Below, in pieces: positions 13,375-56,139 of a stretch of 64,000 nt of DNA. The notes beneath the pieces are model-generated. The model had not been told where the DNA came from. It saw only the letters and a list, made by a program, of their open reading frames with translations, and ran no database searches. Source of the stretch: Candidatus Nealsonbacteria bacterium (GTDB taxonomy: Bacteria > Patescibacteriota > Minisyncoccia > Minisyncoccales > JANBVM01); NCBI GenBank assembly GCA_047456295.1, contig CP179887.1, positions 431,159 through 495,158 on the forward strand, in the 5' to 3' direction. The translations under genes and the position numbers were made by a program. Numbering within the stretch: position 1 is the first letter of the stretch; each line of letters begins with the position of its first letter.

Positions 13375-13460
13375 ATCTATGTATTTTATCTTAAATTTAA
13401 GGAAAATTAAAGAGGTGCCACAAGACACACTCTTTTTAATTTATGTTCAGAAAAGAAATC

Positions 13461-37221: not shown

Positions 37222-37491
37222 ATGGGTAGACGAAAAATGCATTTTGATAAAAGTGGCGATCGAATAGGTCATACTAATAAAGACGGGATACACTACGATA
37301 GAGGTGGCGATCGAATAGGTCATGACAGTAAAGACGGGATGCACTACGATAGAGATGGTGACAGAATAGGTCATACTAATAAAGACGGGATACACTACGA
37401 TAGAGGTGGCGACAGAATAGGTTATACTAATAAAGACGGGATACACTACAATAGAGATGGCGACAGAATAGGTTATGATGAAGATTATTAA
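37222..37491 (+). CDS. His/Asp/Gly-rich mini-protein built from 17-aa tandem repeats
   Basis: AAGGAGG (37207..37213) lies 8 nt before ATG 37222. The product is 5 repeats of H-Y-D-R-G-G-D-R-I-G-H-T-N-K-D-G-I, reminiscent of the YD-repeat consensus. No signal peptide. A hairpin terminator follows. Confidence 0.55.
   Translation: MGRRKMHFDKSGDRIGHTNKDGIHYDRGGDRIGHDSKDGMHYDRDGDRIGHTNKDGIHYDRGGDRIGYTNKDGIHYNRDGDRIGYDEDY
37240..37488 (+). repeat. 51-bp tandem repeat, about 4.9 copies
   Basis: Units start at 37240, 37291, 37342, 37393 and 37444, all nearly identical at the DNA level. Confidence 0.9.
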
Positions 37492-38156: not shown

Positions 38157-41100
38157 TTAACCTGCTTCCTTGGCCTTTTTTATTCTTAGAACTTCTTCAG
38201 GGCTGGTGGTAATTATCTGGTCTTCGGTATAAGAAGCGACCACTTTCATTGCCACGTGCTTTTGTCCGGCAAAGAACATCCCCTCTCCTACCTCTGCTTC
38301 CAGCAATAAATACTTTTCTTCATCGGTTAGATTGAATGCTTTTTGGACAGCATCAATGGTGGCTGTCGACTGTTTCATTAAAACCTGCAAGGAAGAATTG
38401 GTAATGATTGGCTGTCCGTAATTGGATTTCATAAAGTCGTTAAGGTCCTGGGTAATGGTGGTTACTCCCAGCCAGTATTTTCTGGCTCTCTTGCAAATTC
38501 CAAAGAGAAAGGAAGCCCCATCTTCATTTTGCATTATCCACCAGGCTTCATCAACCACCAGGATTCTCTTTTTCAATTCTGACCTGACCTCGTTCCAGAT
38601 ATATCTCATAATAATAAACATTGCCATGGCCCTTAATTCATCTTCTATGTCCCTTATTCCAAAAACAACAAAGGGTTTATCCATTGAAATATTTGTGGGG
38701 TGATTGAAAAATTGAGCAAAGGTTCCTTTGGTGAACTTCCTCACCCTCCTGACCAATGATTCAGCCCCTTCCATTCCTTCTAAAACAGATTCAAGATCTT
38801 CCATTAAAGGTATTCTCTCTCTCCAGGTAGAGGGATCGGTCTCTGGGGTGATGTCTTTTGCAGCATAGGTTTCAGCTAAAGCCCGATCAATAATGGCATC
38901 TTCTTCTGGGGTCAATCCTCCCAGCATAATCCTTAAAAGTCCCACCAGATTAATAATGTTTGACCTTAACACGTCTTCTGGTTTTTCATCTTCCCTTGGT
39001 GTGGGTAGGTCAAAAGGATTAATATGACTCTGGGAAGCCAGAGAAATATTAAAGAAAGAACCTCCCACTGCATCAGACAGGTGTTTATATTCGTTTTCAG
39101 GGTCTAATACAATTACTTCCACCCCTGTCATCAAAGACCTTAAAATATCTAACTTGATGGCATAAGAGTTGTGAACAAACATTCCTGCAGTGCCTGCTAA
39201 AAACACTTCATTGTCAACAGTTAAATCATAAACATATTTATTGTTTTTGTTTCTAATTTTCTTAATTTTAACAATTGGATCCCAGAAAAGATCAGAGTTA
39301 GCTAATATTTTCAACTGAGCCAATTTTTCTTCAACCTGAGGGATTTTATTTACTAAAACATCTTGATAGTTTTGCCAGATAAATTGAGCAGATTTTTGAA
39401 TTGTTTTATAGCTTGTATTACCTTCAGGTTTTGTTACTAAAGCTGACCGGAGAGAGCTATTATAATTTTTCATTGGAATAGCCATTTCTTTAAAACCCAA
39501 ATGAATTGTTTCTTTAATCTTTTTTAAAGAGTAGGATTGGCCATTTACTGTTTCAATTAACCTAAAGGCGTTACAGCAAAAAGGATTAACTTCTCTGTTT
39601 TTAACAACCTGCCAGCTATGACCTAAAGCTTGCCATAAATCTCTATTTAATTCTTTATCATTCTTTCCTAAATTGATTATTGTGCTTAATTCTGGAAGTT
39701 CGGTTAAAACCCTAAAGGTAGAAGTTAAATCTTCAAAATACTGGATTCTTTGTTCAATTTTATTTATTACTTTTAACAGATGTTGAGGAGAAGGGCGGCG
39801 AACACCTCTTTTCCACTCAGAGATTTCTGTTATTCCATAAAGCTGAGGACCAAAAAGATCATGAATTTCTTTAAAAATAGTTTCTAATGTTGGAACAATG
39901 TCAACATTAGTATTACCTGTTTTTTTAATAATTTCAGAAAGCTGATCCCTTTTTCTTTTTGAAATAAAATTAATATCTTGTGCAAACTTCCTGAGATTAT
40001 CCTGGCCAGAAATAGTAAGCTTCCAGTAAGTCTTTTTGTGTTTCCAGCTAGGAATTTTCTTTTTTGTTTTTGAGGTTCTTGCAATGATTCCAAAAAAATA
40101 CAAAAGATAGCTAATTTCTGAAATTAACCTTTTGGATTTAGAGACAGCTGAAATATATGCATTAGCTTCTGTTCCTCCATCTCCTTCAAAATAAGCTGAT
40201 AGGTATTGGGCAATTTTTTGTTTTTCTAAATTAAATATGAATGGCCAGACTTTTTTTTGCTTTGATTTACCTTTTCCTCCTAAAGCCTTTACTATCTCTA
40301 TAAACACCCGAGAACTAGTAATTATGCCTCTATTATCATAATAAAAAGGAATCTTTAATTCAGAAAAAGAGGAATCTATTTCTTTAAGCACCTCTTTATC
40401 TTCATTACTTATAATTATGACATCTTCCCTAATAGTTCCTTCAGCTGTAATAAGGCCAGCTATTTTTAAAAATCCCGATGTAATCTGAAAATCAATATTT
40501 AAAGAATATTGCTTTTTCCCGTTTTTTGAAACAACCTTTAGATTTTTAAATTTTGGGTCATTAGGTTTAATCTTAAGATAATCTAAAATCTTCCAGAAAT
40601 ATTGAATAGGAATACGACGGCCAACTCTATATTTATAAAGATAACGATGGAGATTTTTATCTAAATTAGCCTTCTTTAAGGCTTCATAATTCTCTTCAAT
40701 CAGATATTCTCCACCAGCCACATAAATCCCTTTTGAATATCTAAGCAATTCTAAAAGATTTAAAGATTTTAAAGGAGAATCAGTTTCAGAAACCTGCCGG
40801 GGAACAGGAACAAATTCACCCTCTTTTATTTCAGAACCCTTGGCAGTCTTTATTTTTCCATTTTTTAAAACCAGCATATTATGATCACTTGTTGTAGTAA
40901 TTTTTCTGCCGCTTTGGGTAGTAAATTTATAAAAAACATTTGGTGCTTTTTTCCTGGCAGCTACTGTCACTTCTGACCACTTTGCTTTTAAGTTTTTATC
41001 AAAACTGTAAACTTTAATTTTAGGATCAATTACTCCTTCTAATTCTTCGTCAATTTTAGTTATTCCCTGTTTTTTAATTAATCCTTCAACCAAAGACCCT

Positions 41101-41933
41101 ATTTTTGTTAATTGAATTTCATTTCCATTCTTTATTAAGACTGGTTCAGATCCTAAAATTGACTTTCCTGAACCCGCCTTTCCGAATAAAACCTCATTGG
41201 CATTCTCTAAACCAAAACGGTCAAATAGAATAAGGGAATTGTTGTGTCTGTTGATACCATATAAAATCCCGTCATTAGAACTCAAATCAAAAGAAACAAA
41301 AGGAAAGGTTGAAGAAAGGGGGCCGGTATTCATTGAGGTATGGACCTGGAGCTGGTCCAAACCATAAGGAGCAGTGGAATTAAAACCTTCTCTTTGCTGG
41401 TAAAGGGAGGGTTTAATATAAATCAGTCTGGATTCCAGAATCGACCTCAGATTGGTTTCTATATCCCTTAATTCTTTAGGGGTGTTTCCATAGACGGTTA
41501 AATAAATGCCAAGCTTAAACATCCTTTCCTGGGCAGTTTGTAAGCTGTCCCTCAAAGATTCAAGGTCTTGATGGGCAACCTCTAGGACTGGATCCCTGAT
41601 CAAGCCTTTTTCTTGTCTTTCATTGATTTCAGCTATGACTTCTGCCACCTTTTTCCTTAATTTCTTTAAAATCATTCCGGTTTCAACAGGATGAATGTGT
41701 AATCCAATATTCATTGGGGTGTCCAGATTAATGATCGGAGAAAGCCAACCTGTGCTTATGTATCTGGGATAAGAGAAGATAAAAAAGGACCTAGACAATC
41801 TTTTGCCAAATTCCAAACGGTCCGGCCTCAAGGAAGTGAGAGAAGAAGGCGCAATAATGTCTTTTATCCCTATTGCCGGAGCTTCAAATATTTGTTCAGG
41901 TTTTTCTTTCTTTTTAAAAAAAGGAAATTTCAT
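38157..41933 (-). CDS. virB4: VirB4/TrbE-type T4SS ATPase, interrupted by an intein
   Basis: Walker A FGKAGSGK|S split by the intein, Walker B ILVVDEAWW, downstream TQDLNDF. The joined exteins are 593 aa. Confidence 0.85.
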   Translation of the reverse strand: MKFPFFKKKEKPEQIFEAPAIGIKDIIAPSSLTSLRPDRLEFGKRLSRSFFIFSYPRYISTGWLSPIINLDTPMNIGLHIHPVETGMILKKLRKKVAEVIAEINERQEKGLIRDPVLEVAHQDLESLRDSLQTAQERMFKLGIYLTVYGNTPKELRDIETNLRSILESRLIYIKPSLYQQREGFNSTAPYGLDQLQVHTSMNTGPLSSTFPFVSFDLSSNDGILYGINRHNNSLILFDRFGLENANEVLFGKAGSGKSILGSEPVLIKNGNEIQLTKIGSLVEGLIKKQGITKIDEELEGVIDPKIKVYSFDKNLKAKWSEVTVAARKKAPNVFYKFTTQSGRKITTTSDHNMLVLKNGKIKTAKGSEIKEGEFVPVPRQVSETDSPLKSLNLLELLRYSKGIYVAGGEYLIEENYEALKKANLDKNLHRYLYKYRVGRRIPIQYFWKILDYLKIKPNDPKFKNLKVVSKNGKKQYSLNIDFQITSGFLKIAGLITAEGTIREDVIIISNEDKEVLKEIDSSFSELKIPFYYDNRGIITSSRVFIEIVKALGGKGKSKQKKVWPFIFNLEKQKIAQYLSAYFEGDGGTEANAYISAVSKSKRLISEISYLLYFFGIIARTSKTKKKIPSWKHKKTYWKLTISGQDNLRKFAQDINFISKRKRDQLSEIIKKTGNTNVDIVPTLETIFKEIHDLFGPQLYGITEISEWKRGVRRPSPQHLLKVINKIEQRIQYFEDLTSTFRVLTELPELSTIINLGKNDKELNRDLWQALGHSWQVVKNREVNPFCCNAFRLIETVNGQSYSLKKIKETIHLGFKEMAIPMKNYNSSLRSALVTKPEGNTSYKTIQKSAQFIWQNYQDVLVNKIPQVEEKLAQLKILANSDLFWDPIVKIKKIRNKNNKYVYDLTVDNEVFLAGTAGMFVHNSYAIKLDILRSLMTGVEVIVLDPENEYKHLSDAVGGSFFNISLASQSHINPFDLPTPREDEKPEDVLRSNIINLVGLLRIMLGGLTPEEDAIIDRALAETYAAKDITPETDPSTWRERIPLMEDLESVLEGMEGAESLVRRVRKFTKGTFAQFFNHPTNISMDKPFVVFGIRDIEDELRAMAMFIIMRYIWNEVRSELKKRILVVDEAWWIMQNEDGASFLFGICKRARKYWLGVTTITQDLNDFMKSNYGQPIITNSSLQVLMKQSTATIDAVQKAFNLTDEEKYLLLEAEVGEGMFFAGQKHVAMKVVASYTEDQIITTSPEEVLRIKKAKEAG
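39168..41162 (-). mobile_element. Intein with LAGLIDADG homing endonuclease, in the VirB4 P-loop
   Basis: 665 aa. Ser1 (codon 41162..41160) begins SILGSEPVLIKNG. Block B is TTTSDHNML. LAGLIDADG-like motifs are LKIAGLITAEGTI and LSAYFEGDGG. It ends GMFVHN|S (Asn 39170..39168, +1 Ser 39167..39165). Confidence 0.85.
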
Positions 41934-43630: not shown

Positions 43631-43840
43631 TTAAATAATGTAATTATTTAGTAATTGTACCATTTCATTTGGTGTTTTCCCATTTAAGACACAATACTCT
43701 AGAATCCTTCGTTTTTAATAATTTTATCAATAGTTCTTGTTTTAATCAAGATAGCTTGTTTTTCTAGCCTCCAATAGAGTTTAATGGTAGTTATGTTCTC
43801 TGGACAGGATTAGCCTGTCCAAACTTCTTTTATATGCCAT
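43631..43840 (-). pseudogene. Internally deleted relic of an IS481/IS3-like transposase gene
   Basis: Own translation: starts MAY (ATG 43840..43838), as in the 54962 copy, and ends EYCVLNGKTPNEMVQLLNNYII* (43699..43631), typical of an rve-integrase C-terminus. Stops and deletions lie in between. Confidence 0.45.
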
Positions 43841-43902
43841 ATACATATATTCTAACACTAGGGTAGTGCAAAGGTATTGAACCATAACAATTGCTTGACA
43901 AA
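43801..43902. repeat. Shared hairpin plus 71-nt left-end repeat with outward TTGACA (copy 1)
   Basis: Hairpin TGGACAGG-attag-CCTGTCCA at 43801..43821. 43832..43902 matches the reverse complement of 54900..54970 with 6 mismatches in 71 nt (hand alignment). TTGACA at 43895..43900 faces the gene at 43963. Confidence 0.65.
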
Positions 43903-43962
43903 GAAAAATAGTGTCATAGGATAAGCATAGAATTTAATATTAATAATAGGGAGTGAAATAAA

Positions 43963-46536: not shown

Positions 46537-46667
46537 AACTTTTCAGAAGGTCTTATGAAGAAAGTAGTAGGTAATATATTAATAATTATAGAAAGGAGGT
46601 TTTTAAAATTAAAAAGTGGGACAAGAAACTTCAGAAAGCAAATACCGCAAAGAAAATTATAAAGATC

Positions 46668-47633
46668 ATGATAAACGCACCGGAAGAATATAAAGATAAG
46701 GCTTGGCAACGACTTCTAAAACAAAAACTTGATTTTCCTTCTCTTGCTAAGATAATTAAGGAAGCACCAAAGGTATACAAAGATAAAATATGGCAGGCGG
46801 TTCTAAAACATAAACCTTGCTATGCCACTTTTGCACGGGACTTTATATCGAAACACGCTAATATTCCCATAGAATACAGAATTGAAGGTTGGAAGAACCT
46901 TGTCAAAGAGTGGGATGAATTTGATATTAGATTTATTGTTGATTTGAATTATCTTACAGAAAAATTCTGGGAAGAACTTCTGAAACAAAAACTCAACACA
47001 GATGAAATGTATGAGATAATTAGATGTGCTCCAGAAAAACACAAGAAAGAAGCTTGGGAGCGATTCTTAAAACTAGAAGCATACGATTGTAAACCCTGTC
47101 TGATAATGATGTGTAGGCATTCTTTAACAAGCAGTCACAGCATAGGATTTCCCGAAAACTATAAAATAAAAGTTTGGGAGGAGTTTCTAAAAAGAAAACC
47201 TGGTAACGATGAACTTTTTTTAGTTATAAAGAAAGCTCCAGAAAAGTACTACAGAACAAGGGCGTGGGAAGAACTCAGAAAGGGAACATTTATACCTAAT
47301 GATATCTGTATTAAAATTCTAAATAGAGGCGCTCCAAAATATAAATATGATTCTTATGGTGTTAAAGAAATTCTAAGTAGAGGCATTCCAATAAAATACA
47401 AAGATGAAGTTTGGGCACAGTTCTTAAAACAAAACCCCAGCAATTACGAACTTTTTTTAGTAATTGAAAAAGCTTCAGAAGAGTGTTACAAACTAAAAGC
47501 CTGGGATAAATTTTTAGAACAAAATCCCGATAGCAATGATTTAAACCTGGTAATTACCTTTGCTCCAGAGGAGTATAGTAAAAAAGCTCAAGAAGTTTTA
47601 AATAAAGTTTTAAAAAAAGAAATATATATCTAA
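46668..47633 (+). CDS. Novel alpha-helical tandem-repeat protein (about 30-aa APExYKxKAWxxFLKQxP units)
   Basis: About 10 repeats visible by eye. The C-terminal third is paralogous to 55129..56139. The reading frame is open from 46575, and the repeat pattern continues upstream of the ATG (see findings). Confidence 0.6.
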   Translation: MINAPEEYKDKAWQRLLKQKLDFPSLAKIIKEAPKVYKDKIWQAVLKHKPCYATFARDFISKHANIPIEYRIEGWKNLVKEWDEFDIRFIVDLNYLTEKFWEELLKQKLNTDEMYEIIRCAPEKHKKEAWERFLKLEAYDCKPCLIMMCRHSLTSSHSIGFPENYKIKVWEEFLKRKPGNDELFLVIKKAPEKYYRTRAWEELRKGTFIPNDICIKILNRGAPKYKYDSYGVKEILSRGIPIKYKDEVWAQFLKQNPSNYELFLVIEKASEECYKLKAWDKFLEQNPDSNDLNLVITFAPEEYSKKAQEVLNKVLKKEIYI

Positions 47634-47661
47634 GGGATAGTTTATAACTATCCATTTTTTT
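47634..47661 (+). terminator. Intrinsic terminator (shared with paralog at 55101..55127)
   Basis: GGGATAG-tttataa-CTATCC plus T-run. Confidence 0.6.
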
Positions 47662-47705
47662 ATTTCTGATCTAATTACAATGATTCTTCTGATTTTCAAG
47701 GAAAG
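47652..47705. repeat. Cassette end motif, copy A
   Basis: Contains ATCTAATTACAATGAT (47669..47684), identical to the reverse complement of 54075..54090. Similarity extends about 55 nt (..CTTCTG..TTT.AAGGAAAG). Confidence 0.65.
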
Positions 47706-47719
47706 CGCTGGGATTTTTA

Positions 47720-48049
47720 GCCACCCAAAAATTCGAAGTGGGAAGCCTTAATGCTTTCTCTTTTAAGAAGGATGGTTAATATATCAGGATTTAACTGTAT
47801 CTTATGTTTTAGTTTCCTTATTTTTCAACCAACTATTAAGGATATTCATTGGGATAGTGATGAAACCCTATTAATACAGGTATCAATCCCTGTATTCCTT
47901 TTTTCCATGTATGTAGACACCCATCTTTTTAAGGTACGATAAAAGAATGAAGGAATCTTAGCTATGTTTCTCAATGACTCTTTGCCTTCAAGGATAGGTT
48001 TAATCCATCAATATTTCTCTTCTTGGATTAAATTGGGCATAGTTTTCAT
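47720..48049 (-). pseudogene. N-terminal relic of an IS481/IS3-like transposase (HTH region)
   Basis: Own translation from ATG 48049: MKTMPNLIQEEKY*WIKPILEGKESLRNIAKIPSFFYRTLKRWVSTYMEKRNTG.., with an in-frame TGA and later frameshifts (..GLIPVLIGFHHYPNEYP.., ..LNPDILTILLKRE..). No catalytic domain follows. Confidence 0.5.
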
Positions 48050-48065
48050 ATGCCCTTAGATTATC

Positions 48066-48112
48066 AGAAAAGTGCAAAAAGTGTGTATACATTGACACAT
48101 GGGCTTGACAAA
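48066..48112 (+). promoter_or_regulatory. Diverged copy of the left-end/outward promoter module
   Basis: AGTGCAAAAAGTGT...GGGCTTGACAAA with TTGACA at 48105..48110, a 17-nt spacer and TGgTACTAT. It drives the gene at 48177. Confidence 0.5.
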
Positions 48113-48176
48113 TTAGAAACAAAGTGGTACTATTACATTACATTAAAAATTAAATATAACTAAAGGAGGAAAAAAA

Positions 48177-48524
48177 ATGACAGACCTTGCTGATTTATTA
48201 AAAGTAATAAAAGAAAAAAAAGAAAGTAAAGAATTTAAAAAACTCAAAAAAGATGTTGAAAAAGAACAGACTGCAATGGTATTAGAGTTATTGGTTAATT
48301 ATAAAATATTCGAGAGATTGGGGAAAGAATTCGACGACGCGATAGAAGAATTAGATAAGGAAAGACAAAAAGACACTTTGGACTTAGCAAAAATCAAAGC
48401 CGCAAAGACAAAATTAAAGACAGCTGAAAAAAAATACAAGGAAGACAAGAAAAAATGGCTATCGGAAAAAGAATTAGTTCGGATGAAATTGAAAAAAAGA
48501 AGTCATAGAAGAAAGTTAAAGTAA
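48177..48524 (+). CDS. Lys/Glu-rich coiled-coil protein, paralogous to the middle of 55129..56139
   Basis: AMVLELLVNYKIFERLGKEFD...KKWLSEKELVRMKLKKRS aligns with AMVTKLIAHYEISENLGKELD...RNWLLEKNLVRTRLKLKS. Strong SD AAGGAGG. Confidence 0.45.
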   Translation: MTDLADLLKVIKEKKESKEFKKLKKDVEKEQTAMVLELLVNYKIFERLGKEFDDAIEELDKERQKDTLDLAKIKAAKTKLKTAEKKYKEDKKKWLSEKELVRMKLKKRSHRRKLK

Positions 48525-48611
48525 AGGCTTAAAAATTTTTATTTTGCTTAATATAAATTTTTTTAGCCGTTTTTTTTTGTATGTGAAAACTTATTCTTCT
48601 TCTTCTTCAGA

Positions 48612-51203
48612 TTATCCTCCTTTAAGTTCTTCTAATAGACTTTCTACTGCTTTTTCGTCTTTTGTTAATTTCCATTTATCGATACCTCTTCGAGCCTTTG
48701 TAAGATTTAATTTATAATCCTCTATATCTTTTTGGATTTCTTTAGACGTTTCTGTATTAATCTCTTTTATTCTTTTTTCTCTTTTCTCAATCCTTTGCCT
48801 TATTACCCCTTTTTCCACCGGTAAGACCGCTTTCAACTCCTCTTTACTTAGAACCTCTATTTGTTTTTCTAATTTACGTCTTTCTCTAATAATTTCCCTG
48901 AATTCTTTTATTTGTTTATTAATATGAGAAATAAATTCTTTTCCTTGTTTTCTAAGTGTTCTTACTTTTTTTGTTCCTCTTTTTCTCTTTATCTCAGGTA
49001 AAGGAGCTGGAGATTCTGTTAATTCTCTTATTTCCTTTTCCATTGTAGATAGTGGTGTTGTACCTTTTGTCCCTTTATAACCCCATTGTTTTCCCGCAGG
49101 ACTGGTATCAAAGTAGCGGACTAAACGAGGATTTATTTTTTTAAGTTCTTCTTCTCCAATACTGTTTATTCCTCCTGTTCCTTCAAAGAAATCATCGGTT
49201 GTTTCTTTATCAAAACTATCTCTAACTTTAGCTAAATGTCCAGAAGTCCAGTTACGGCTTCCCCTTCTAACTGCTAAGGATTTTAAAGATGAAGCACTCA
49301 TTTCTGCTACTTTTGCCGGCTTGAGTTTACCAACATGAATTGAGGAAGCAGCAATATTTTTAAGGTCTTTTTCAAGAAATTGCTTTCTTATATCATCAGT
49401 AATATCTTCTATATTTATCTTATATTTAATCTTAATTTCTTCCTCTATTCCTTCATCGCCTAACATATCAATCATTTCTTTTCTCGCTTCCTCTATTTTG
49501 TTTTTCGTTTCCTCTTTTTTATCCTTTGGTGCAAGACCTATTATTACCTCTTCAGTCATCATATCAGGAAGGGCATTTGCTATTTCTCCAACATGTTTTT
49601 TAGCATAATCTTTGTTAACTGTTCCTTCGGCATCCCCGATTATTTTATTCTTGAATTTTTCATCAGTTTTAGCGAGTTCTCCCTCTTTTGCCATATAAGA
49701 TGCATGGGCGACCCTGCCCCGCTTTCCAAGGGTTCCCATATATAATTGTTTATTTTCAAGACTCATTTCCTTAAAATCATCTGACACACCCATCACCCTC
49801 TTTTGAGCCCTGGCTTGATATTTTAAAAGGGGAGCAACGGTTAATTTTTTAAAGCCTTTAAGAGGCACCCTTGATAATCCTTTAGCGGCAACTCCTGCTA
49901 AACCGCCTGCTGCCATACCTAGTCCACCGGTAGCAACGCCAAGACCTATCTTTGCCATCGTCTTTGGCAGGTCTTGTACTCCTTGGATTACTGCGCGAGC
50001 TGCTTCAGGAGCAGAATCCTTACTTAATTTCCACCCAATAATAAGTACAGAAAGACCAATAACAGGATCAATAAGGTCTTCAAGAAGCCCTGAGAGATAC
50101 TTAATATCATTATCCAGAAGAGCAGCTTGGGCATCTTCTTGGGTAGCACCACTATCTATTTCCGCAAACTTCTCAGGTGCTTTGAATATTGCAGGCTCTG
50201 ATTTTGCCATCATATAACTTGAAAGGAAAATGAAGAAAGAAAGAGGTATTGCAACAATTACCCACCGGATGAGTTCTTCCCACCAATTGTCCCAGTTAAG
50301 AATGCCTGGAAACAATAATTTGACTTTTGAGCCTGAGGGGAAAATATAAGAGAGAAAGGCAATGGGAGCAAATATCATTAAAATCCAGAGCCATACGATT
50401 CTCAATATGAATATATAGGCTACTGCCAGATAAACAACAGAAGAATATGCAAGGAAAATAAGCCCTATAACTCCGTAAGCTACAAAGGCAGCAAGCTGGA
50501 ATACTAGAGCTGCAATTACCTCACCCATATCAAAAAAATCCGTACCCCCTGGCATCGCTAACCAAATCCTTGCAAGAACTACCATCATTTCAGTCCATAT
50601 TTTCGTTGAAACATTTATAGCCGAAGATCCTAAAGTCCCCATAAAACCTTGGTAGAAAAAATTTGTTACAATGTTTCCAATATCAACAATAAAGCCAACG
50701 ATTACAGGGGTGAAATTTACTAAAATAGCAATAATAATAAGTTTTGGTAGGGCTTTTTTTGCTTCATAATCTTTTATTCTCAAGATAGTAGCTAAACCAA
50801 TAAAAACTAATACAAGTATAAAAAACATGTTAACCAAGCCGCTTGTAAACTCCCAACCCACAGTAACTAATGAATCAGGGCCCAATGCACTTGGGGTCAC
50901 TCCCACAGATAACGATATTTCAGCGAGATGTTCGAGTATGAGCGCTATGATTATATAAAGAACTCCGGCTGCGAACGACATAAAGAAAATGGGCAACATT
51001 GTGAGAAATACAATAAGCCTGATAGGAACAGTGACAAGGTAGGTTATAATCTTTCCAATAAGGCACCATAGATCAAGTCCACAACCCCACACAGCCTTAG
51101 TAGTCTGTAAAGGTAAAAGAGATAGGAATAATGCGATTCCTAAGGCCAAGAACAGAACTCTTTTGTTTTGAGAAAGTATTTTACTCATAGAACCAAATCT
51201 CAT
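48612..51203 (-). CDS. VirB6/TrbL-like polytopic membrane protein with large C-terminal cytoplasmic domain
   Basis: 863 aa. About 9-10 TM helices in the first 400 aa or so, a Gly-rich segment, and a long charged coiled-coil tail. Adjacent to the other T4SS-like genes. Assigned from architecture only. Confidence 0.45.
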   Translation of the reverse strand: MRFGSMSKILSQNKRVLFLALGIALFLSLLPLQTTKAVWGCGLDLWCLIGKIITYLVTVPIRLIVFLTMLPIFFMSFAAGVLYIIIALILEHLAEISLSVGVTPSALGPDSLVTVGWEFTSGLVNMFFILVLVFIGLATILRIKDYEAKKALPKLIIIAILVNFTPVIVGFIVDIGNIVTNFFYQGFMGTLGSSAINVSTKIWTEMMVVLARIWLAMPGGTDFFDMGEVIAALVFQLAAFVAYGVIGLIFLAYSSVVYLAVAYIFILRIVWLWILMIFAPIAFLSYIFPSGSKVKLLFPGILNWDNWWEELIRWVIVAIPLSFFIFLSSYMMAKSEPAIFKAPEKFAEIDSGATQEDAQAALLDNDIKYLSGLLEDLIDPVIGLSVLIIGWKLSKDSAPEAARAVIQGVQDLPKTMAKIGLGVATGGLGMAAGGLAGVAAKGLSRVPLKGFKKLTVAPLLKYQARAQKRVMGVSDDFKEMSLENKQLYMGTLGKRGRVAHASYMAKEGELAKTDEKFKNKIIGDAEGTVNKDYAKKHVGEIANALPDMMTEEVIIGLAPKDKKEETKNKIEEARKEMIDMLGDEGIEEEIKIKYKINIEDITDDIRKQFLEKDLKNIAASSIHVGKLKPAKVAEMSASSLKSLAVRRGSRNWTSGHLAKVRDSFDKETTDDFFEGTGGINSIGEEELKKINPRLVRYFDTSPAGKQWGYKGTKGTTPLSTMEKEIRELTESPAPLPEIKRKRGTKKVRTLRKQGKEFISHINKQIKEFREIIRERRKLEKQIEVLSKEELKAVLPVEKGVIRQRIEKREKRIKEINTETSKEIQKDIEDYKLNLTKARRGIDKWKLTKDEKAVESLLEELKGG

Positions 51204-51234
51204 AATAATATATTATATTATAATACCACAAAAC

Positions 51235-53154
51235 TTAAAAGGTAATTGTCCACCATTTTTCTGTAAAGCCCAAGACCCTTAAGATGGTGTTTATAATGGT
51301 CCAGGCAAGAAAGATGATTGCGTATCCCTGTCCAGCTGATTTCCAGATTGACCTTATATTAATCACAGTACCAGGAGCTCCCATTGAAAAATAAGAAACC
51401 ACAAAGGTTGCTATTGTTAATATTACCAAAGCAATCAATCCAATTCTCCATAAAATAAAGTCAAGTATGTTCTTAAAAAGCAAGAAAACATGTTTGAATT
51501 GACAGGGTTCTCTTTCATTCCAGGGAGTCTTTGGATTGTCTGAACTTCTGCCGCAGGGAACCAGACCGAATTGACCTGGTGGTACAGGCTGGACATAGGT
51601 AAAGCTCCAGGGAGATTCTCTCCACATTCCTGCTTCTTCACAATCTTTATCAAGACAGGCTCTCACCCACCAGTTATAGTCTCCCAAACAAGAAAGAGAT
51701 ACAAAATCAGAATTAGAAGAAACAATGGTGAGTTGAATTGCTGCTTGGCCTGCTATGCAATTTTGATCATCTTCTTCCGGAGATTTTAAGGCATAATCAA
51801 TCTTATACTGATAGAACTTTGCTCCTAGAACTGAATTCCAGGAAACACGGTTTTCATAGGTATAAAAAGTACCCCCATTATCAGGAGAAGGATTGGAAGG
51901 GATATTAAGGGTAAAGGTTGTAAAACTCTCTGGACTGCTCCAATCCCCGCACACCTCACCTGTTGCATCACCACAGATTCTGACCCGAAACCAATATTGG
52001 GTATCTTGAATTAAAGTAGGGTAATCCACAGAAACTTCTGAGCTCCCAACAATCCCACTATCCACAATTTTATCATCAGCAAAAGAGCTCTCAGAACAAA
52101 CCTGATAATTGTAGGATGCTGCTCCCACCACATCATTCCAATCAAAATTAACCGGGATTATTTCATTATCAATATTTATGTCACCCGAGATTGCACCAGT
52201 GGTTTTAAAAAACCAGGTTTCACCAAAATCACTACAGCTAATACCATCTTCTCTTAAACAAGATTTAACATGCCAGCCGTATTTTGTATCAGTCTCTAAA
52301 AAGCTCCAAACATCAGCAAGAGGAGCTTCATAAGAAGTAGTGAGAATGGGTCCAATAATTATTGTATCATTCTTTTTAATCTCATAGAGAAAAGAACGGG
52401 CCCAATAAGTTTCTTCTTCAGGTCCAATCCATTCTAAAGAATCAAACAGGCTTACTACTGGAACTTTTTCTGGTGGACCTGGATCATAGAAAGGATTGAT
52501 GAGTTCTGGTGGCGTGATTTCCTTTTCCTCGGTGGTAAAGCTCCATCTGGGACTGAAATCTGCGCAATCTACAGCTGATTCTTCGTTTCCGCAACTTAAT
52601 CCACAACTGGTCAAATCTTCATTAGAGCAGGCTGCAATCTCCCATTGGTATGTTGTTGTTGCAGCAAAAACCCAGAGATAACCAATGTCAAACTCTATCC
52701 TGGACTCAAGACTGCCGAACGTATGATAAACCCCTCCCCCTTTTAAAATCCGACCATAATAAGACTGAGCGTTGCCAACATCGCACCAGTCAAGAGAAAC
52801 AGGAATTGGAACATTAACAGCTTCATTTTCAGGAGACAGAAGTCCGTCTATACAAATTTCACACTTGTTGCGATCGTCAGCTGGCAGCCAGTCACCAAAA
52901 GAAGTAAAACCTGTACAATCAGCGCCATTGCTACTGCAATATTTGGTTGCTTCCCTTTTTACAGCACTTCCTTGTTCATCACATTTGTATTCTGTCCAGG
53001 CATCACATACATAGTTTGATGGTCTAAACTCGGTAGGCGAAACCGAGGTGTCGCAGCAAGGACCAGAACTACATGCATCTTGGGCAAGAACCTGACTTTT
53101 ACAAAAAAGAAATAAAAAAGAAAAGATTAGAATAAATTTAAATAATTTTCTCAT
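51235..53154 (-). CDS. Secreted Cys-rich repeat adhesin with pilin-like C-terminal two-helix membrane domain
   Basis: Signal peptide and a Cys-rich head. Four roughly 100-aa FN3-like modules each end W.F(T/K)T. The C-terminus (PCGR...CQFKHVFLLF...two hydrophobic helices) mirrors the 37721 pilin architecture. Confidence 0.5.
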   Translation of the reverse strand: MRKLFKFILIFSFLFLFCKSQVLAQDACSSGPCCDTSVSPTEFRPSNYVCDAWTEYKCDEQGSAVKREATKYCSSNGADCTGFTSFGDWLPADDRNKCEICIDGLLSPENEAVNVPIPVSLDWCDVGNAQSYYGRILKGGGVYHTFGSLESRIEFDIGYLWVFAATTTYQWEIAACSNEDLTSCGLSCGNEESAVDCADFSPRWSFTTEEKEITPPELINPFYDPGPPEKVPVVSLFDSLEWIGPEEETYWARSFLYEIKKNDTIIIGPILTTSYEAPLADVWSFLETDTKYGWHVKSCLREDGISCSDFGETWFFKTTGAISGDINIDNEIIPVNFDWNDVVGAASYNYQVCSESSFADDKIVDSGIVGSSEVSVDYPTLIQDTQYWFRVRICGDATGEVCGDWSSPESFTTFTLNIPSNPSPDNGGTFYTYENRVSWNSVLGAKFYQYKIDYALKSPEEDDQNCIAGQAAIQLTIVSSNSDFVSLSCLGDYNWWVRACLDKDCEEAGMWRESPWSFTYVQPVPPGQFGLVPCGRSSDNPKTPWNEREPCQFKHVFLLFKNILDFILWRIGLIALVILTIATFVVSYFSMGAPGTVINIRSIWKSAGQGYAIIFLAWTIINTILRVLGFTEKWWTITF

Positions 53155-53156
53155 TA

Positions 53157-53978
53157 TTAAATCTTAAAACTTTTTGTTAATTTAAGCCAGTCTTTAACAT
53201 CCAGGGTTTCTGCTCTTTGGCTGGGTTGAAACCCATTTTTTAAAAGCCAATCCTTAACCTCTTTTTTATCCATTTTTAATTTCTTTGATAAATTATTCAC
53301 CAGTTGTTTCCTCGGCTGGGAAAAGCCAGCCTTAACGATTTCAAAGAATTGTTTAGTTAGTTTATTTGAGACTTTAAGTTTTTTGGGAACTATTTTAATA
53401 ATGGCTGAATCAACTTTTGGTTCAGGCCAAAAGGATTTTTTGGAAACAAAAGAAATAATCTTGGGTTCAGCGTAAAACTGGACAGAAACAGCCAGAAGAT
53501 TCATTCTTGTAAAACTGCAGATTCTTTTTGCAACCTCTCTTTGAACCATTAAAATGATTTCCTTTGGCTGGTTTTTCATTTCCAGAAACCCTCTTATCAA
53601 AGGAGAGGTTAAATAATAAGGAATATTAGCTACAATTTTATATGGTTTTGAGGCATAAAGTTCAGGTTCTAATCTTAAAATGTCTCCTTCAATAATCTCA
53701 ACATTCTTGATATTCTGAGAAGTCAACACTTCTTTTAAGATTCCACACATTTTTTTATCTTTTTCTATTGCCATAACCTTCTTTGCTTTTCTTGCCAATT
53801 CCAGTGTCAGGTTTCCAATCCCAGAACCTATTTCCAGGACAATGTCATTTTTTGAAAGACGAGCTGTTTTAATTATTTTTTTTAATACCATGTTATCAAT
53901 TAAAAAGTTTTGCCCTAATCTTTTCAAAGGATAAACACCATGTTTTCTCAACAGTTTTTTCACAGTTTTTACATCCAT
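53157..53978 (-). CDS. rsmA: 16S rRNA (adenine1518/1519-N6)-dimethyltransferase
   Basis: LGQNFLID, EIGSGIGNLT, NIPYYLTSP. Confidence 0.9.
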   Translation of the reverse strand: MDVKTVKKLLRKHGVYPLKRLGQNFLIDNMVLKKIIKTARLSKNDIVLEIGSGIGNLTLELARKAKKVMAIEKDKKMCGILKEVLTSQNIKNVEIIEGDILRLEPELYASKPYKIVANIPYYLTSPLIRGFLEMKNQPKEIILMVQREVAKRICSFTRMNLLAVSVQFYAEPKIISFVSKKSFWPEPKVDSAIIKIVPKKLKVSNKLTKQFFEIVKAGFSQPRKQLVNNLSKKLKMDKKEVKDWLLKNGFQPSQRAETLDVKDWLKLTKSFKI

Positions 53979-54052
53979 GTTTTATTTTAACACAAAAACA
54001 AAATATATCCTGTTTGATTAACATGACCATCTTTTAATAACAAGCCCTAATC

Positions 54053-54109
54053 CTTTCCTTAAAAGAACAGAAGGATCATTGTAATTAGATTAAAAATAAA
54101 AAAAATTGG
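54053..54109. repeat. Cassette end motif, copy B (inverted relative to 47652..47705)
   Basis: ATCATTGTAATTAGAT at 54075..54090 is the reverse complement of the copy A core. Flanks are similar. Confidence 0.65.
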
Positions 54110-54122
54110 TGCTAGGCACCAA
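54098..54122 (-). terminator. Intrinsic terminator of the zinc-ribbon gene
   Basis: TTGGTGC-cta-GCACCAA followed by a T-run on the minus strand. Confidence 0.6.
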
Positions 54123-54152
54123 AAGAATATTTTTGTTTTAATTTAACTATTT

Positions 54153-54827
54153 TTAAACAGGAGTTTCCTTTAATTCTTTTACACGGTCTTCGACATTTAT
54201 TCCACAGAAAGGACAAAACGAGACTATTGATGTTAATTGTACTCCACAAGAGGGACAATAGAATTCACTTGCCTTTTCCTTAACTTGTGCAACCTTCGCG
54301 AGCTTCTCTTTTAATTCCTCAATTGTTTTTTTAGCTTCCTTTTCTACCTCTCTTTTAGCTTGTTCAATTTTTATTAGTTTCTCTTTTAAATCACTGATTG
54401 TTTTTCTAGTCTTTTTTCCTAGTTTCTCCTCTAATTTCTCTTCGGGTTTCCCCTTGGGCTTTATCTGTGTAATAGTGAATTGAATATGCTCATTTAACTT
54501 ATCTGTTGTTTTGTAAATAAGCCAATTACTTTTAATTCTATATTGAACCTTCCATTCTTTTTCCTCTTGACCATCAACTGCGGTTGACAAGATACCTTTT
54601 CTAAAACTACCACGATCATCCTCTATTACTACTCCCGCTTTACATTTTTTGCAAATCAATGATAAATAAATATAACGAGAAAAAACCCACGTTAGGCCAT
54701 TATTATTAACTCTAAATTTATTAGCTTTTATTTCTCCTCCACAACATTCATTATGAAACATTCTTAAATTTCTAAATTTTGTTTTCTTATACCCTTTTCT
54801 TTCTTCTACATTAATCGTAAAATCCAT
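54153..54827 (-). CDS. Zinc-ribbon / coiled-coil protein, function unknown (cargo gene)
   Basis: 224 aa. N-terminal Cys cluster (HNECCGG...CKKCKAG), central K/E coiled coil with a duplicated KEKL..I..A segment, and C-terminal CPSCG...CPFCG ribbon. Confidence 0.45.
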   Translation of the reverse strand: MDFTINVEERKGYKKTKFRNLRMFHNECCGGEIKANKFRVNNNGLTWVFSRYIYLSLICKKCKAGVVIEDDRGSFRKGILSTAVDGQEEKEWKVQYRIKSNWLIYKTTDKLNEHIQFTITQIKPKGKPEEKLEEKLGKKTRKTISDLKEKLIKIEQAKREVEKEAKKTIEELKEKLAKVAQVKEKASEFYCPSCGVQLTSIVSFCPFCGINVEDRVKELKETPV

Positions 54828-54899
54828 TTTTTTAAAACCTCCATTTGTTTTTATTTAATTGTAAATTTAATCTATCTCTTTCTACCTCATTTTTCCCAT

Positions 54900-54970
54900 T
54901 TTGTCAAACATATGTTATGATTCAATACCTTCGCACTACCCTAGTGTTAAAATATATGTATATGGCATAT
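54900..54970. repeat. 71-nt left-end repeat with outward TTGACA (copy 2)
   Basis: Reverse complement matches 43832..43902. TTGACA (complement of 54902..54907) faces the gene at 54827. Confidence 0.65.
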
Positions 54971-55057
54971 ACAAACAATCCAAAGCTTCCACAAGTAAGA
55001 ATGGAAGCTGTAAGACTTCTTCAAAAAGGTTGGTCAACATTCCCTACTAGAGTCTGA
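54962..55057 (+). pseudogene. 5' fragment of an IS481-like transposase gene
   Basis: MAYTNNPKLPQVRMEAVRLLQKGWSTFPTRV*. The N-terminal pattern (NP.LP.VR.EAV.L...GWS) matches IS481-type HTH N-termini as I recall them. It is truncated after 31 codons and followed by the hairpin 55068..55088. Confidence 0.5.
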
Positions 55058-55100
55058 ACAGGCTACCTGGACAGGCTAAGCCTGTCCAAAGAACAAAAAT

Positions 55101-55127
55101 AAAAAAAGGGATAGTTATAAGCTATCC
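55101..55127 (-). terminator. Intrinsic terminator (paralog of 47634..47661)
   Basis: GGATAG-cttataa-CTATCCC plus a T-run on the minus strand. Confidence 0.6.
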
Positions 55128-55128
55128 T

Positions 55129-56139
55129 TTAAATATAATACTTTCTTTTATTCAAAACTTTCAGAGCTTCTTTTCTATATTCTTCTGAAGCAAAGGTAAT
55201 CACCAGATTTAAATCATTGCCATCAGGGTTTTGTTCTAAAAATTTACTCCAAGCTTTTCTTTTGTACCCTTCTGGAATTTTCTCTTTCTCAATTGCTAAA
55301 AAAAGTTCGTAATTACTGGGGTTTTGCCTTAAGAACTTTTCCCACGCTTTTTCTTTGACTTCTTCTGGAGCTTTTTCTATTACTAAGAAAATTTCATAGG
55401 TAGTAAATGCTTGTTTTAAATGTTTTTTCCACTCGATGATTTTTCCCGGTTTTTCAAGTTTCCCTTTTTCTTCCCAAAGTTTGACCCAACGGCGATTTAA
55501 TTTAAGTATTCTTATTAATGCTTTATGAGGTAGTGTTCCTTCAGATTGCACTGATTTTAACTTCAGTCTCGTCCGAACTAAATTTTTTTCCAATAGCCAA
55601 TTTCTTTCTGCTTTCTCGTATTTTTCTTCAGATTCCTTTAAATCTTCTTCTGCTTTTTTTATTCCTTCTAAGTTTAAGGTGCCTTTTTCTATTCCCCTAA
55701 TTATTTTTTCCATCTTCCTGTCGAGTTCTTTCCCCAAGTTCTCTGATATTTCATAATGAGCTATTAATTTTGTTACCATTGCAACCCGCTCTTTCTTTTT
55801 AAGTTCTTTAAATGCTTCCGGGGCATCTCTTATAATTTCCATAATTTCCTCTGGAGTATTTGTTCTCTGAAGTTTTTTATCCCAGCCTTTAATTCTTGAT
55901 CTAATTTTTAACCCCCACTTTTTTCTTTTTGGTCTTCCTCCTTCTCCAGCCTTCTCTAACCAAGAATCAAGAACAACAATAGTTAAAGGGATACTTACTA
56001 TGAAGTCAATAACAATCCAGATAATCGCGTATAGTCCCGGTCCCAAAAAAGCGCTAGGTATAGAAAGTATAGAAAAAATGAAAGAGAATACAAAAAACCC
56101 TCCAATAACCAAACCAATAACATCACCAACTTTACCCAT
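55129..56139 (-). CDS. Membrane-anchored fusion paralog: 2 TM + coiled coil (48177-like) + helical repeats (46668-like)
   Basis: N-terminal two hydrophobic helices. The middle aligns with the 48177 protein. The C-terminus shares the runs QNPSNYELFL, KFLEQNPD and NDLNLVITFA with the 46668 protein. Confidence 0.5.
   Translation of the reverse strand: MGKVGDVIGLVIGGFFVFSFIFSILSIPSAFLGPGLYAIIWIVIDFIVSIPLTIVVLDSWLEKAGEGGRPKRKKWGLKIRSRIKGWDKKLQRTNTPEEIMEIIRDAPEAFKELKKKERVAMVTKLIAHYEISENLGKELDRKMEKIIRGIEKGTLNLEGIKKAEEDLKESEEKYEKAERNWLLEKNLVRTRLKLKSVQSEGTLPHKALIRILKLNRRWVKLWEEKGKLEKPGKIIEWKKHLKQAFTTYEIFLVIEKAPEEVKEKAWEKFLRQNPSNYELFLAIEKEKIPEGYKRKAWSKFLEQNPDGNDLNLVITFASEEYRKEALKVLNKRKYYI

Follow-up and report, generated by a model that had tools for sequence, protein, structure and literature searches.

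In a 64,000-nt stretch, hereafter the window, of a 689,429-bp contig from a metagenome-assembled genome of Candidatus Nealsonbacteria (Patescibacteria, also called the Candidate Phyla Radiation), short inverted repeats flank a 6.4-kb segment that carries rsmA and two large genes of a cluster resembling a type IV secretion system (T4SS). A preliminary description of this DNA saw in them the inner of two nested inverted pairs and proposed that they could serve as substrates for inversion of the segment. We find instead that both pairs go back to one and the same ancestral inverted duplication, about 310 nt long and 80% identical. It consists of the 3' end of a repeat-protein gene, an intrinsic terminator and some 50-65 nt of downstream spacer, which we call C'. 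In all likelihood, the repeats are the diverged 3' flanks of inverted paralogous gene copies, a passive by-product of duplication and not a device. The coordinates of the features discussed below are collected in Table 1.

One inverted duplication behind two repeat pairs

The inner repeats had been placed at 47652..47705 and 54053..54109. A gapped self-BLAST of the window agrees with these limits within 3-5 nt (47655-47705 against 54053-54104, 52 nt, 88.5%, E 1.7e-10), and a repeat search returned 47655-47696 against 54063-54104 (42 nt, 88% complementary). Their identical 16-mer core, ATCTAATTACAATGAT, was confirmed as an exact match at 47669-47684 on the plus strand and 54075-54090 on the minus strand, with no further copy in the window even when 3 mismatches were allowed. 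At that tolerance, at least 2 matches to the 16-mer turned up in 41 of 100 shuffled sequences, so the core alone is not significant; a 37-nt degenerate pattern of the inner repeat matched in 0 of 100. The longer pair said to lie outside, at the ends and terminators of two paralogous genes, was also recovered (47399-47672 against 55090-55357, 280 nt, 78.6%, E 1.6e-61). Further inverted pairs were found at 48229-48493 against 55562-55817, at 46607-46696 against 55805-55894, and at 43788-43821 and 43828-43909 against 55068-55101 and 54889-54974, respectively.

The apparent nesting of the inner and outer pairs disappears once a 1,003-bp piece (54092-55094) is removed. Positions 47398-47705 are then colinear with the right arm over 314 alignment columns at 80% identity, and the arms share no exact run longer than 19 nt. 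Homology of the left arm to the right-hand copy in a related contig, L014, reaches 47719. In other words, a single repeat is present, and a 1-kb insertion has cut its right arm in two. The proximal part keeps the gene end and terminator; the distal part, C', is located between the terminator of the inserted 224-aa gene and the rsmA promoter.

Immediately 5' of every repeat copy stands an intrinsic-terminator-like hairpin with a T-tract. All three predicted terminators lie downstream of a stop codon and are built from a GC-containing stem-loop (stems of 6-8 bp, loops of 3-7 nt) followed by TTTTTTT(T)AT. Because the first 11 nt of each inner arm (TTTTTTTATTT) are the T-tract of such a terminator, the similarity of the arms over these positions is functionally convergent. 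The T-rich start of each inner repeat would act as a predicted terminator T-tract, and the remainder appears to be spacer with no assigned role. As an alternative to inversion, the preliminary description had suggested that the repeats might be cassette right ends. This came close to the mark, as each repeat is a terminator with its spacer, on the 3' side of one of two paralogous gene units.

The paralogy extends into the genes themselves. The 321-aa and 336-aa proteins share 69% identity over their last 74 residues (E 9e-29), and a 115-aa open reading frame (ORF) within the segment resembles the 336-aa protein at residues 98-196 (42% over 104 aa, E 2e-19). At the left-hand locus of another related contig (L011, 114-813) we found a gene that has the domain order of the 336-aa protein without its transmembrane part. 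The family is small, with 6 clusters among 5.8 billion sequences. The 321-aa protein had 0 matches in Pfam or NCBIfam, and a record look-up for the 115-aa ORF in other contexts returned none.

Variation and orientation among related strains

To judge orientation we relied on assemblies. Close relatives were available for the left junction (contigs L003, L011 and L012) and for the right junction, where L014 (JGI 3300029812) is 94% and L015 (Logan DRR310881) 94-96% identical to the window; L003 is from the same JGI sample as L014. Three distant relatives have no repeat-protein genes: L004 and L005, in which the membrane protein is ~34% identical, and L013 (CP179892.1, a 654-kb Nealsonbacteria assembly), in which rsmA is 70% identical. 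A pattern scan of species genomes with the 863-aa protein of the segment found 0 relatives, and the lineage is therefore unrepresented in that species-genome collection.

In L004, L005 and L013 the genes run LysM-M23 (-), rsmA (+), one or more pilin-like genes, membrane protein (+), 140-aa, PrgI, TraC-like and VirB4 (+). Relative to both flanks, this is the arrangement of the window. Because relatives without the repeat-protein genes show it too, the orientation of the block is ancestral. The junctions were parental in 5 of 5 contigs from close relatives (L003, L011, L012, L014 and L015), and if L003 and L014 derive from one genome, then that strain carries the C' pair (~89% identical by manual count) in the same arrangement. 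Comparing relatives had been put forward as a check on inversion and, as far as assemblies show, it yields a single orientation. Across these contigs the C' copies cluster mostly by locus rather than by genome; there is therefore no sign of homogenisation between the arms, with one base as a possible exception.

The content of the window also speaks against the proposed inversion. We ran the plausible ORFs in the 64 kb that reach 90 aa against Pfam, leaving out opposite-strand ORFs nested in larger genes, and found no integrase, resolvase, invertase or intact transposase. An inversion had been expected to swap the promoters that face the T4SS membrane genes, yet both the rsmA promoter region (~53985-54035) and the promoter of the 115-aa ORF fall within the segment and would be carried along with the genes they serve. 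Beyond either repeat lies only a terminator. Because the promoters are internal, flipping at C' would just exchange the upstream terminators and leave both transcription units intact. Together with the ancestral orientation, the parental junctions and arms of 80% identity with at most 19 nt exact, these results speak against the repeats as inversion substrates.

The piece that splits the right arm is polymorphic. It is flanked by a 13-nt direct repeat, TTTTTTTATTTTT, at 55107-55095 and 54104-54092. Read along the minus strand, the terminator of the 336-aa gene is followed by TTTTTTTATTTTT and unrelated sequence, and 1,003 bp on by TTTTTTTATTTTT again and then AATCTAATTACAATGAT. L015 is without the 1-kb piece: its 336-like gene ends in the terminator, and C' and rsmA follow without interruption (L015 195-245). 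The gene end in L015 is 95.6% identical to 55095-55321, compared to 81% for the left arm; because it is of the right-hand type, L015 represents an empty-site allele and not an inversion junction. From the direct repeat we infer an insertion rather than a deletion in L015. L014 contains the 1-kb piece (L014 2238-3244) and differs in another way: an unrelated 169-aa multi-transmembrane gene (L014 1709-2218) takes the place of the 336-aa gene, and the boundary of the replacement falls exactly at the shared terminator hairpin. A comparison found no homology of the 169-aa gene to the N-terminal part of the 336-aa gene. We also noted a homologue of the inserted 224-aa gene at another locus in L013 (2262-2813).

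The left arm has a scar of its own. Besides the 115-aa ORF, the segment contains a pseudogene related to the N-terminal helix-turn-helix region of IS481-like insertion sequence (IS) transposases. A whole-library HMMER search with its 53-aa translation gave four matches (best E 1.8e-6); three carry HTH_28 and HTH_32, and two of these also LZ_Tnp_IS481. In a tblastn search with the best match (P0201, residues 3-105), 103 residues were colinear to 48046-47738 (44%, E 1.9e-22) across three in-frame stops, and the pseudogene has no DDE (rve) catalytic domain. We conclude that it is a transposase remnant whose exact family is uncertain. The 360 nt past the left C' (about 47720-48066) are missing at the same position in L011 and L003.

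We infer the following order of events. A lineage-specific repeat-protein gene would have been copied together with its intrinsic terminator and ~50-65 nt of spacer, and the copies would have come to flank the conserved T4SS block of rsmA, pilin and membrane-protein genes in mirror orientation, one between the LysM-M23 gene and rsmA and the other between the membrane-protein gene and the 139-aa, PrgI and VirB4 genes. Later the copies probably diverged to ~80% identity. The 1,003-bp piece would subsequently have entered the T-tract of the right copy's terminator, parting the spacer (now the inner pair) from the gene end and terminator (now the outer pair), and an IS481-like element may have landed just past the left spacer and decayed there.

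A history of paralogy, insertion and IS decay is ordinary. As in other inverted paralogous duplications, the mirror copies have diverged while sharing gene end, terminator and spacer, and they carry the usual scars: one arm is split by a strain-polymorphic indel and a truncated IS481-like pseudogene sits by the other. Nothing essential sets the locus apart from such cases, although a Patescibacteria T4SS setting near dnaA has less often been described at such resolution.

Weighing other explanations

Several observations weigh against a purely passive origin. The occurrence of three right-hand alleles among strains that are 94-96% identical shows that the neighbourhood of the terminator is recombinationally active. 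Outside the T-tract, the spacer is identical at 35 of 40 positions compared to ~80% for the coding sequence, a difference within sampling noise. A derived A in AATTACAAT is common to both arms of the window and absent from the right-hand copies of the relatives; it could stem from gene conversion over a short tract or from parallel mutation. A remote member of the family, found in another context (L009), has kept a hairpin resembling the terminator and, after it, sequence with a vague likeness, and the 3' flank may thus carry some constraint. Finally, two assemblies, L001 and L002, match the window at 100%, and the first of them spans the whole region (over 13.9 kb). L001 evidently stems from the same organism and may well go back to an identical data set; the sole other assembly of the whole region is therefore no independent witness, and a rare minority orientation is possible beyond the assemblies.

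Some of these points would fit the diverged arms recombining now and then through RecA, with inversion of the segment as a neutral or slightly harmful structural polymorphism that has no regulatory role; we regard this as improbable. The arms offer ~310 nt of inverted homology, strains differ in the neighbourhood by indels and a gene replacement, and the shared derived base might be a conversion tract. Efficient homologous recombination, however, generally needs roughly 20-30 nt of perfect match. Arms that are 80% identical and match exactly over no more than 19 nt at a stretch fall below this requirement, and the right arm is interrupted by 1 kb. Recombinant junctions were seen in 0 of 5 contigs from relatives, and the arms evolve mostly by locus.

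The alleles at the right-hand locus could instead mean that the terminator hairpin, T-tract and C' form a preferred recombination junction at which strains swap accessory gene units. The inverted C' copies would then be recognition or landing sequences of some mechanism, perhaps one that also permits low-frequency inversion of the block. The existence of three right-hand alleles, a replacement exact to the shared terminator and a 1-kb unit with T-tract repeats are the grounds for this proposal, to which we give quite a small chance.

A mobile element ending in the inner repeats is, in our view, very unlikely, whether they are taken as the terminal inverted repeats of an IS or a miniature inverted-repeat transposable element (MITE) or as a recombination site aimed at terminator T-tracts, through which gene units would travel as cassettes. 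There are traces of mobility at this locus: the 1,003-bp unit with its 13-nt direct repeats is present or absent among strains, a sequence that we call leader module X occurs in two copies, the IS481-like pseudogene abuts the left C', and in L014 a different gene (169 aa) stands ahead of the same terminator. Yet C' is not part of the 1,003-bp unit, and L015, whose site is empty, has it as well. The direct repeat consists of two terminator T-tracts and may reflect microhomology. As an IS terminal repeat, C' is ruled out by L003 and L011, in which it is present without the IS remnant. No target duplication was found outside the inner repeats, and the 6.4 kb between them includes conserved core genes that retain the ancestral order. 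Exactly two copies of C' occur in the window, and our scans met it in no other context: a metagenome-wide scan with the 21-mer ATCTAATTACAATGATYCTTC returned only three contigs, all with one and the same unrelated coding sequence, and the pattern of the hairpin plus T-tract had 0 matches in 185,579 species genomes.

Leader module X consists of a hairpin, GGACAGGnTTAGCCTGTCC, and the sequence up to a TTGACA box; one copy precedes the methyltransferase gene and the other the 224-aa gene, with a 93-nt indel between them. A short ORF on its opposite strand (MAYTNNPKLPQVRMEAVRLLQKGWST), frameshifted in L014, has some resemblance to transposase N-termini, but no Pfam, NCBIfam or tblastn match (the last with IS481-like queries) supported this, and an IS origin of the module, as a 5' remnant, was not confirmed.

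A comparison with integrons leads to a similar result. Like attC boundaries, the repeats are short conserved sequences at the 3' ends of gene units whose content varies by strain. Unlike them, they have no integrase in the window scan and exist in two copies only; C' has no attC-like foldable imperfect palindrome and no hairpin potential of that type, and the hairpin at this locus is a plain terminator stem. C' matched no Rfam family, and it folds no better than shuffled sequence (z-scores of -0.4 to +1.9). We therefore rejected C' as a structured RNA or attC-like fold.

Selection on C' as a cis-regulatory or protein-binding site, such as an operator that lies 5' of rsmA and 3' of the repeat-protein gene, is less credible again. 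C' is slightly better conserved than the adjoining coding sequence (36 of 37 positions are identical between the window and L003/L012), and the remote homologue keeps a similar terminator with a faintly similar flank. However, relatives with rsmA directly beside LysM-M23 have no C', so it is not an rsmA control site. What lies downstream of the left copy varies among strains between the IS remnant and the small-gene promoter. The core is not palindromic, and the right-hand cores of relatives differ from ATCTAATTACAATGAT, being ATCTAATTGCGATGAT in L014 and ATCTAATTGCAATTAT in L015.

Least credible of all is a programmed invertible segment, in which a site-specific recombinase would act on the ATCTAATTACAATGAT cores and flip the 6.4-kb block, so that expression of the T4SS membrane and pilin genes would vary: an exact 16-mer core within inverted repeats brackets surface and secretion genes, a class that is often phase-variable in other bacteria, but the Pfam scan of the window found no recombinase, every relative, including those without the repeats, has the same orientation, the right-hand cores of L014 and L015 are not conserved, a flip would alter only the terminator preceding rsmA, the segment includes that housekeeping gene, and the longer paralogous duplication accounts for the repeat. 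Known invertons, such as the Hin, Gin and Cin segments, fim-type switches and shufflons, which have been surveyed by PhaseFinder-type methods, likewise have inverted repeats around a segment with surface-related genes. The Nealsonbacteria segment differs from them in having no recombinase gene in the window and no second orientation in any assembly, in a core that varies among strains, in internal promoters that give no ON/OFF logic and in its atypical content, 6.4 kb with a housekeeping rRNA methyltransferase. Its repeat, moreover, is the tail of a 310-nt paralogous region and not a short dedicated site. This similarity calls for caution, as short inverted repeats around surface or secretion genes resemble phase-variation switches; at this locus, a few related contigs revealed them to be diverged gene tails, one arm of which was later split by an insertion.

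The secretion cluster and its surroundings

Three genes form the operon-like block inside the repeats. The preliminary description named rsmA, an adhesin-pilin gene and a VirB6-like gene in the segment, and the rsmA assignment holds (RrnaAD, Table 1). The pilin label of the 639-aa protein draws on its NCBI name, "pilin", and on synteny; its match to T4SS_pilin is sub-threshold (E 0.014). For the 863-aa protein (P0014) we found no match to any Pfam or NCBIfam family, including VirB6, TrbL and PrgH profiles. Some of its homologues have precomputed PF19590 matches, whereas a search of P0014 itself against the current Pfam copy gave no such match. Its position within the conserved cluster and the PF19590 matches of these homologues make "VirB6-like" a putative label.

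Patescibacteria carry a T4SS cluster with VirB4, PrgI/VirB3-like, VirB6-like and VirB2-like pilin proteins near dnaA (PMC12102498). The window resembles it in having an intein-containing VirB4/TraG ATPase, a PrgI-family protein, a small T4SS_pilin protein and a large polytopic membrane protein, all ~3-20 kb from dnaA; a 212-aa and a 139-aa protein are other members of the T4SS-like cluster. Unlike the clusters of L013, L004 and L005, that of the window has accessory genes at two junctions: those for the methyltransferase, a histidine kinase and the 321-aa and 115-aa proteins at one, and those for the 336-aa and 224-aa proteins at the other. As a by-product, our comparison gives a fine-scale view of accessory-gene turnover, by insertion, replacement and IS decay, at two T4SS-cluster junctions in Candidatus Nealsonbacteria strains.

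Table 1. Positions of the repeat arms, terminators, genes and other elements in the window
Feature	Coordinates	Strand	Remarks
Left arm of ancestral inverted duplication	47398..47719	+	321-aa gene 3' end (stop 47633), terminator, spacer C'
Spacer C', left copy	47655 to about 47705-47719	+	contains 16-mer 47669-47684
Right arm, proximal part	55095..55358	-	336-aa paralogue 3' end (stop 55129), hairpin 55127-55109, T-tract 55107-55095
Right arm, distal part (spacer C')	54040..54104	-	holds 16-mer 54075-54090
Predicted terminator after 321-aa gene	hairpin 47635-47653	+	GGATAGTTTATAACTATCC plus T-tract
Predicted terminator after 336-aa gene	55127-55109	-	GGATAGCTTATAACTATCC plus T-tract; paralogue of the 321-aa gene's terminator
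Predicted terminator after 224-aa gene	54122-54106	-	TTGGTGCCTAGCACCAA plus T-tract
321-aa repeat-protein gene	46668..47633	+	motif APEEYK..AW..FL.QNP; lineage-specific family
336-aa paralogue	55129..56139	-	mosaic: N-terminal transmembrane region, 115-aa-like segment, 321-aa-like C-terminus
115-aa coiled-coil ORF	48177..48524	+	promoter-like TTGACA-17-TACTAT at 48105-48133
Insertion	54092..55094	-	1,003 bp; leader module X, 224-aa zinc-ribbon gene, own terminator
Leader module X in insertion	55101-54889	-
224-aa zinc-ribbon gene	54827-54153	-
Second copy of leader module X	43788..43909	+	upstream of 266-aa methyltransferase gene; inverted relative to 54889-55101
IS481-like transposase N-terminal helix-turn-helix pseudogene	47738..48049	-	between left C' and promoter of 115-aa gene
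Operon-like conserved block	48612..53978	-	rsmA, 639-aa and 863-aa genes
rsmA	53978-53157	-	Pfam RrnaAD PF00398, E 8e-57, profile 6-261/263; NCBI name RsmA
639-aa Cys-rich protein, C-terminal pilin-like domain	53154-51235	-
863-aa polytopic membrane protein	51203-48612	-
VirB4/TraG-type ATPase, intein-containing	38157-41933	-	also LAGLIDADG domain
dnaA	33913-35262	-	YidC also in window

The starts of two genes at this locus drew our attention. A conserved TGTTAAAAT precedes rsmA by 5-8 nt before the ATG in close and distant relatives alike (window 53979-54000; L004 1960-1984; L005 2550-2572; L014 3355-3371; L015 325-340), and no ribosome-binding site (RBS) is visible ahead of the gene. Because of these two features, the sequence suggests a leaderless rsmA mRNA transcribed from an extended -10 promoter. 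In the 321-aa gene, homology to its paralogue starts 60 nt upstream of the listed ATG (46668), and a strong RBS (AAAGGAGG) lies 8 nt before an in-frame ATT (46608). Since the RBS and the ATT are conserved in three strains (46590-46670; L003 4240-4170, reverse complement; L011 95-130), they suggest a non-canonical ATT start codon.

Some repeated and intervening sequences of the window complete the picture. A second intein interrupts the gene for the RtcB RNA ligase (10399-13428, minus strand). Between an R3H/Jag-like gene and the small T4SS_pilin gene, positions 37237-37491 hold a tandem array with a 51-nt period, in which about five units are 75-84% identical.

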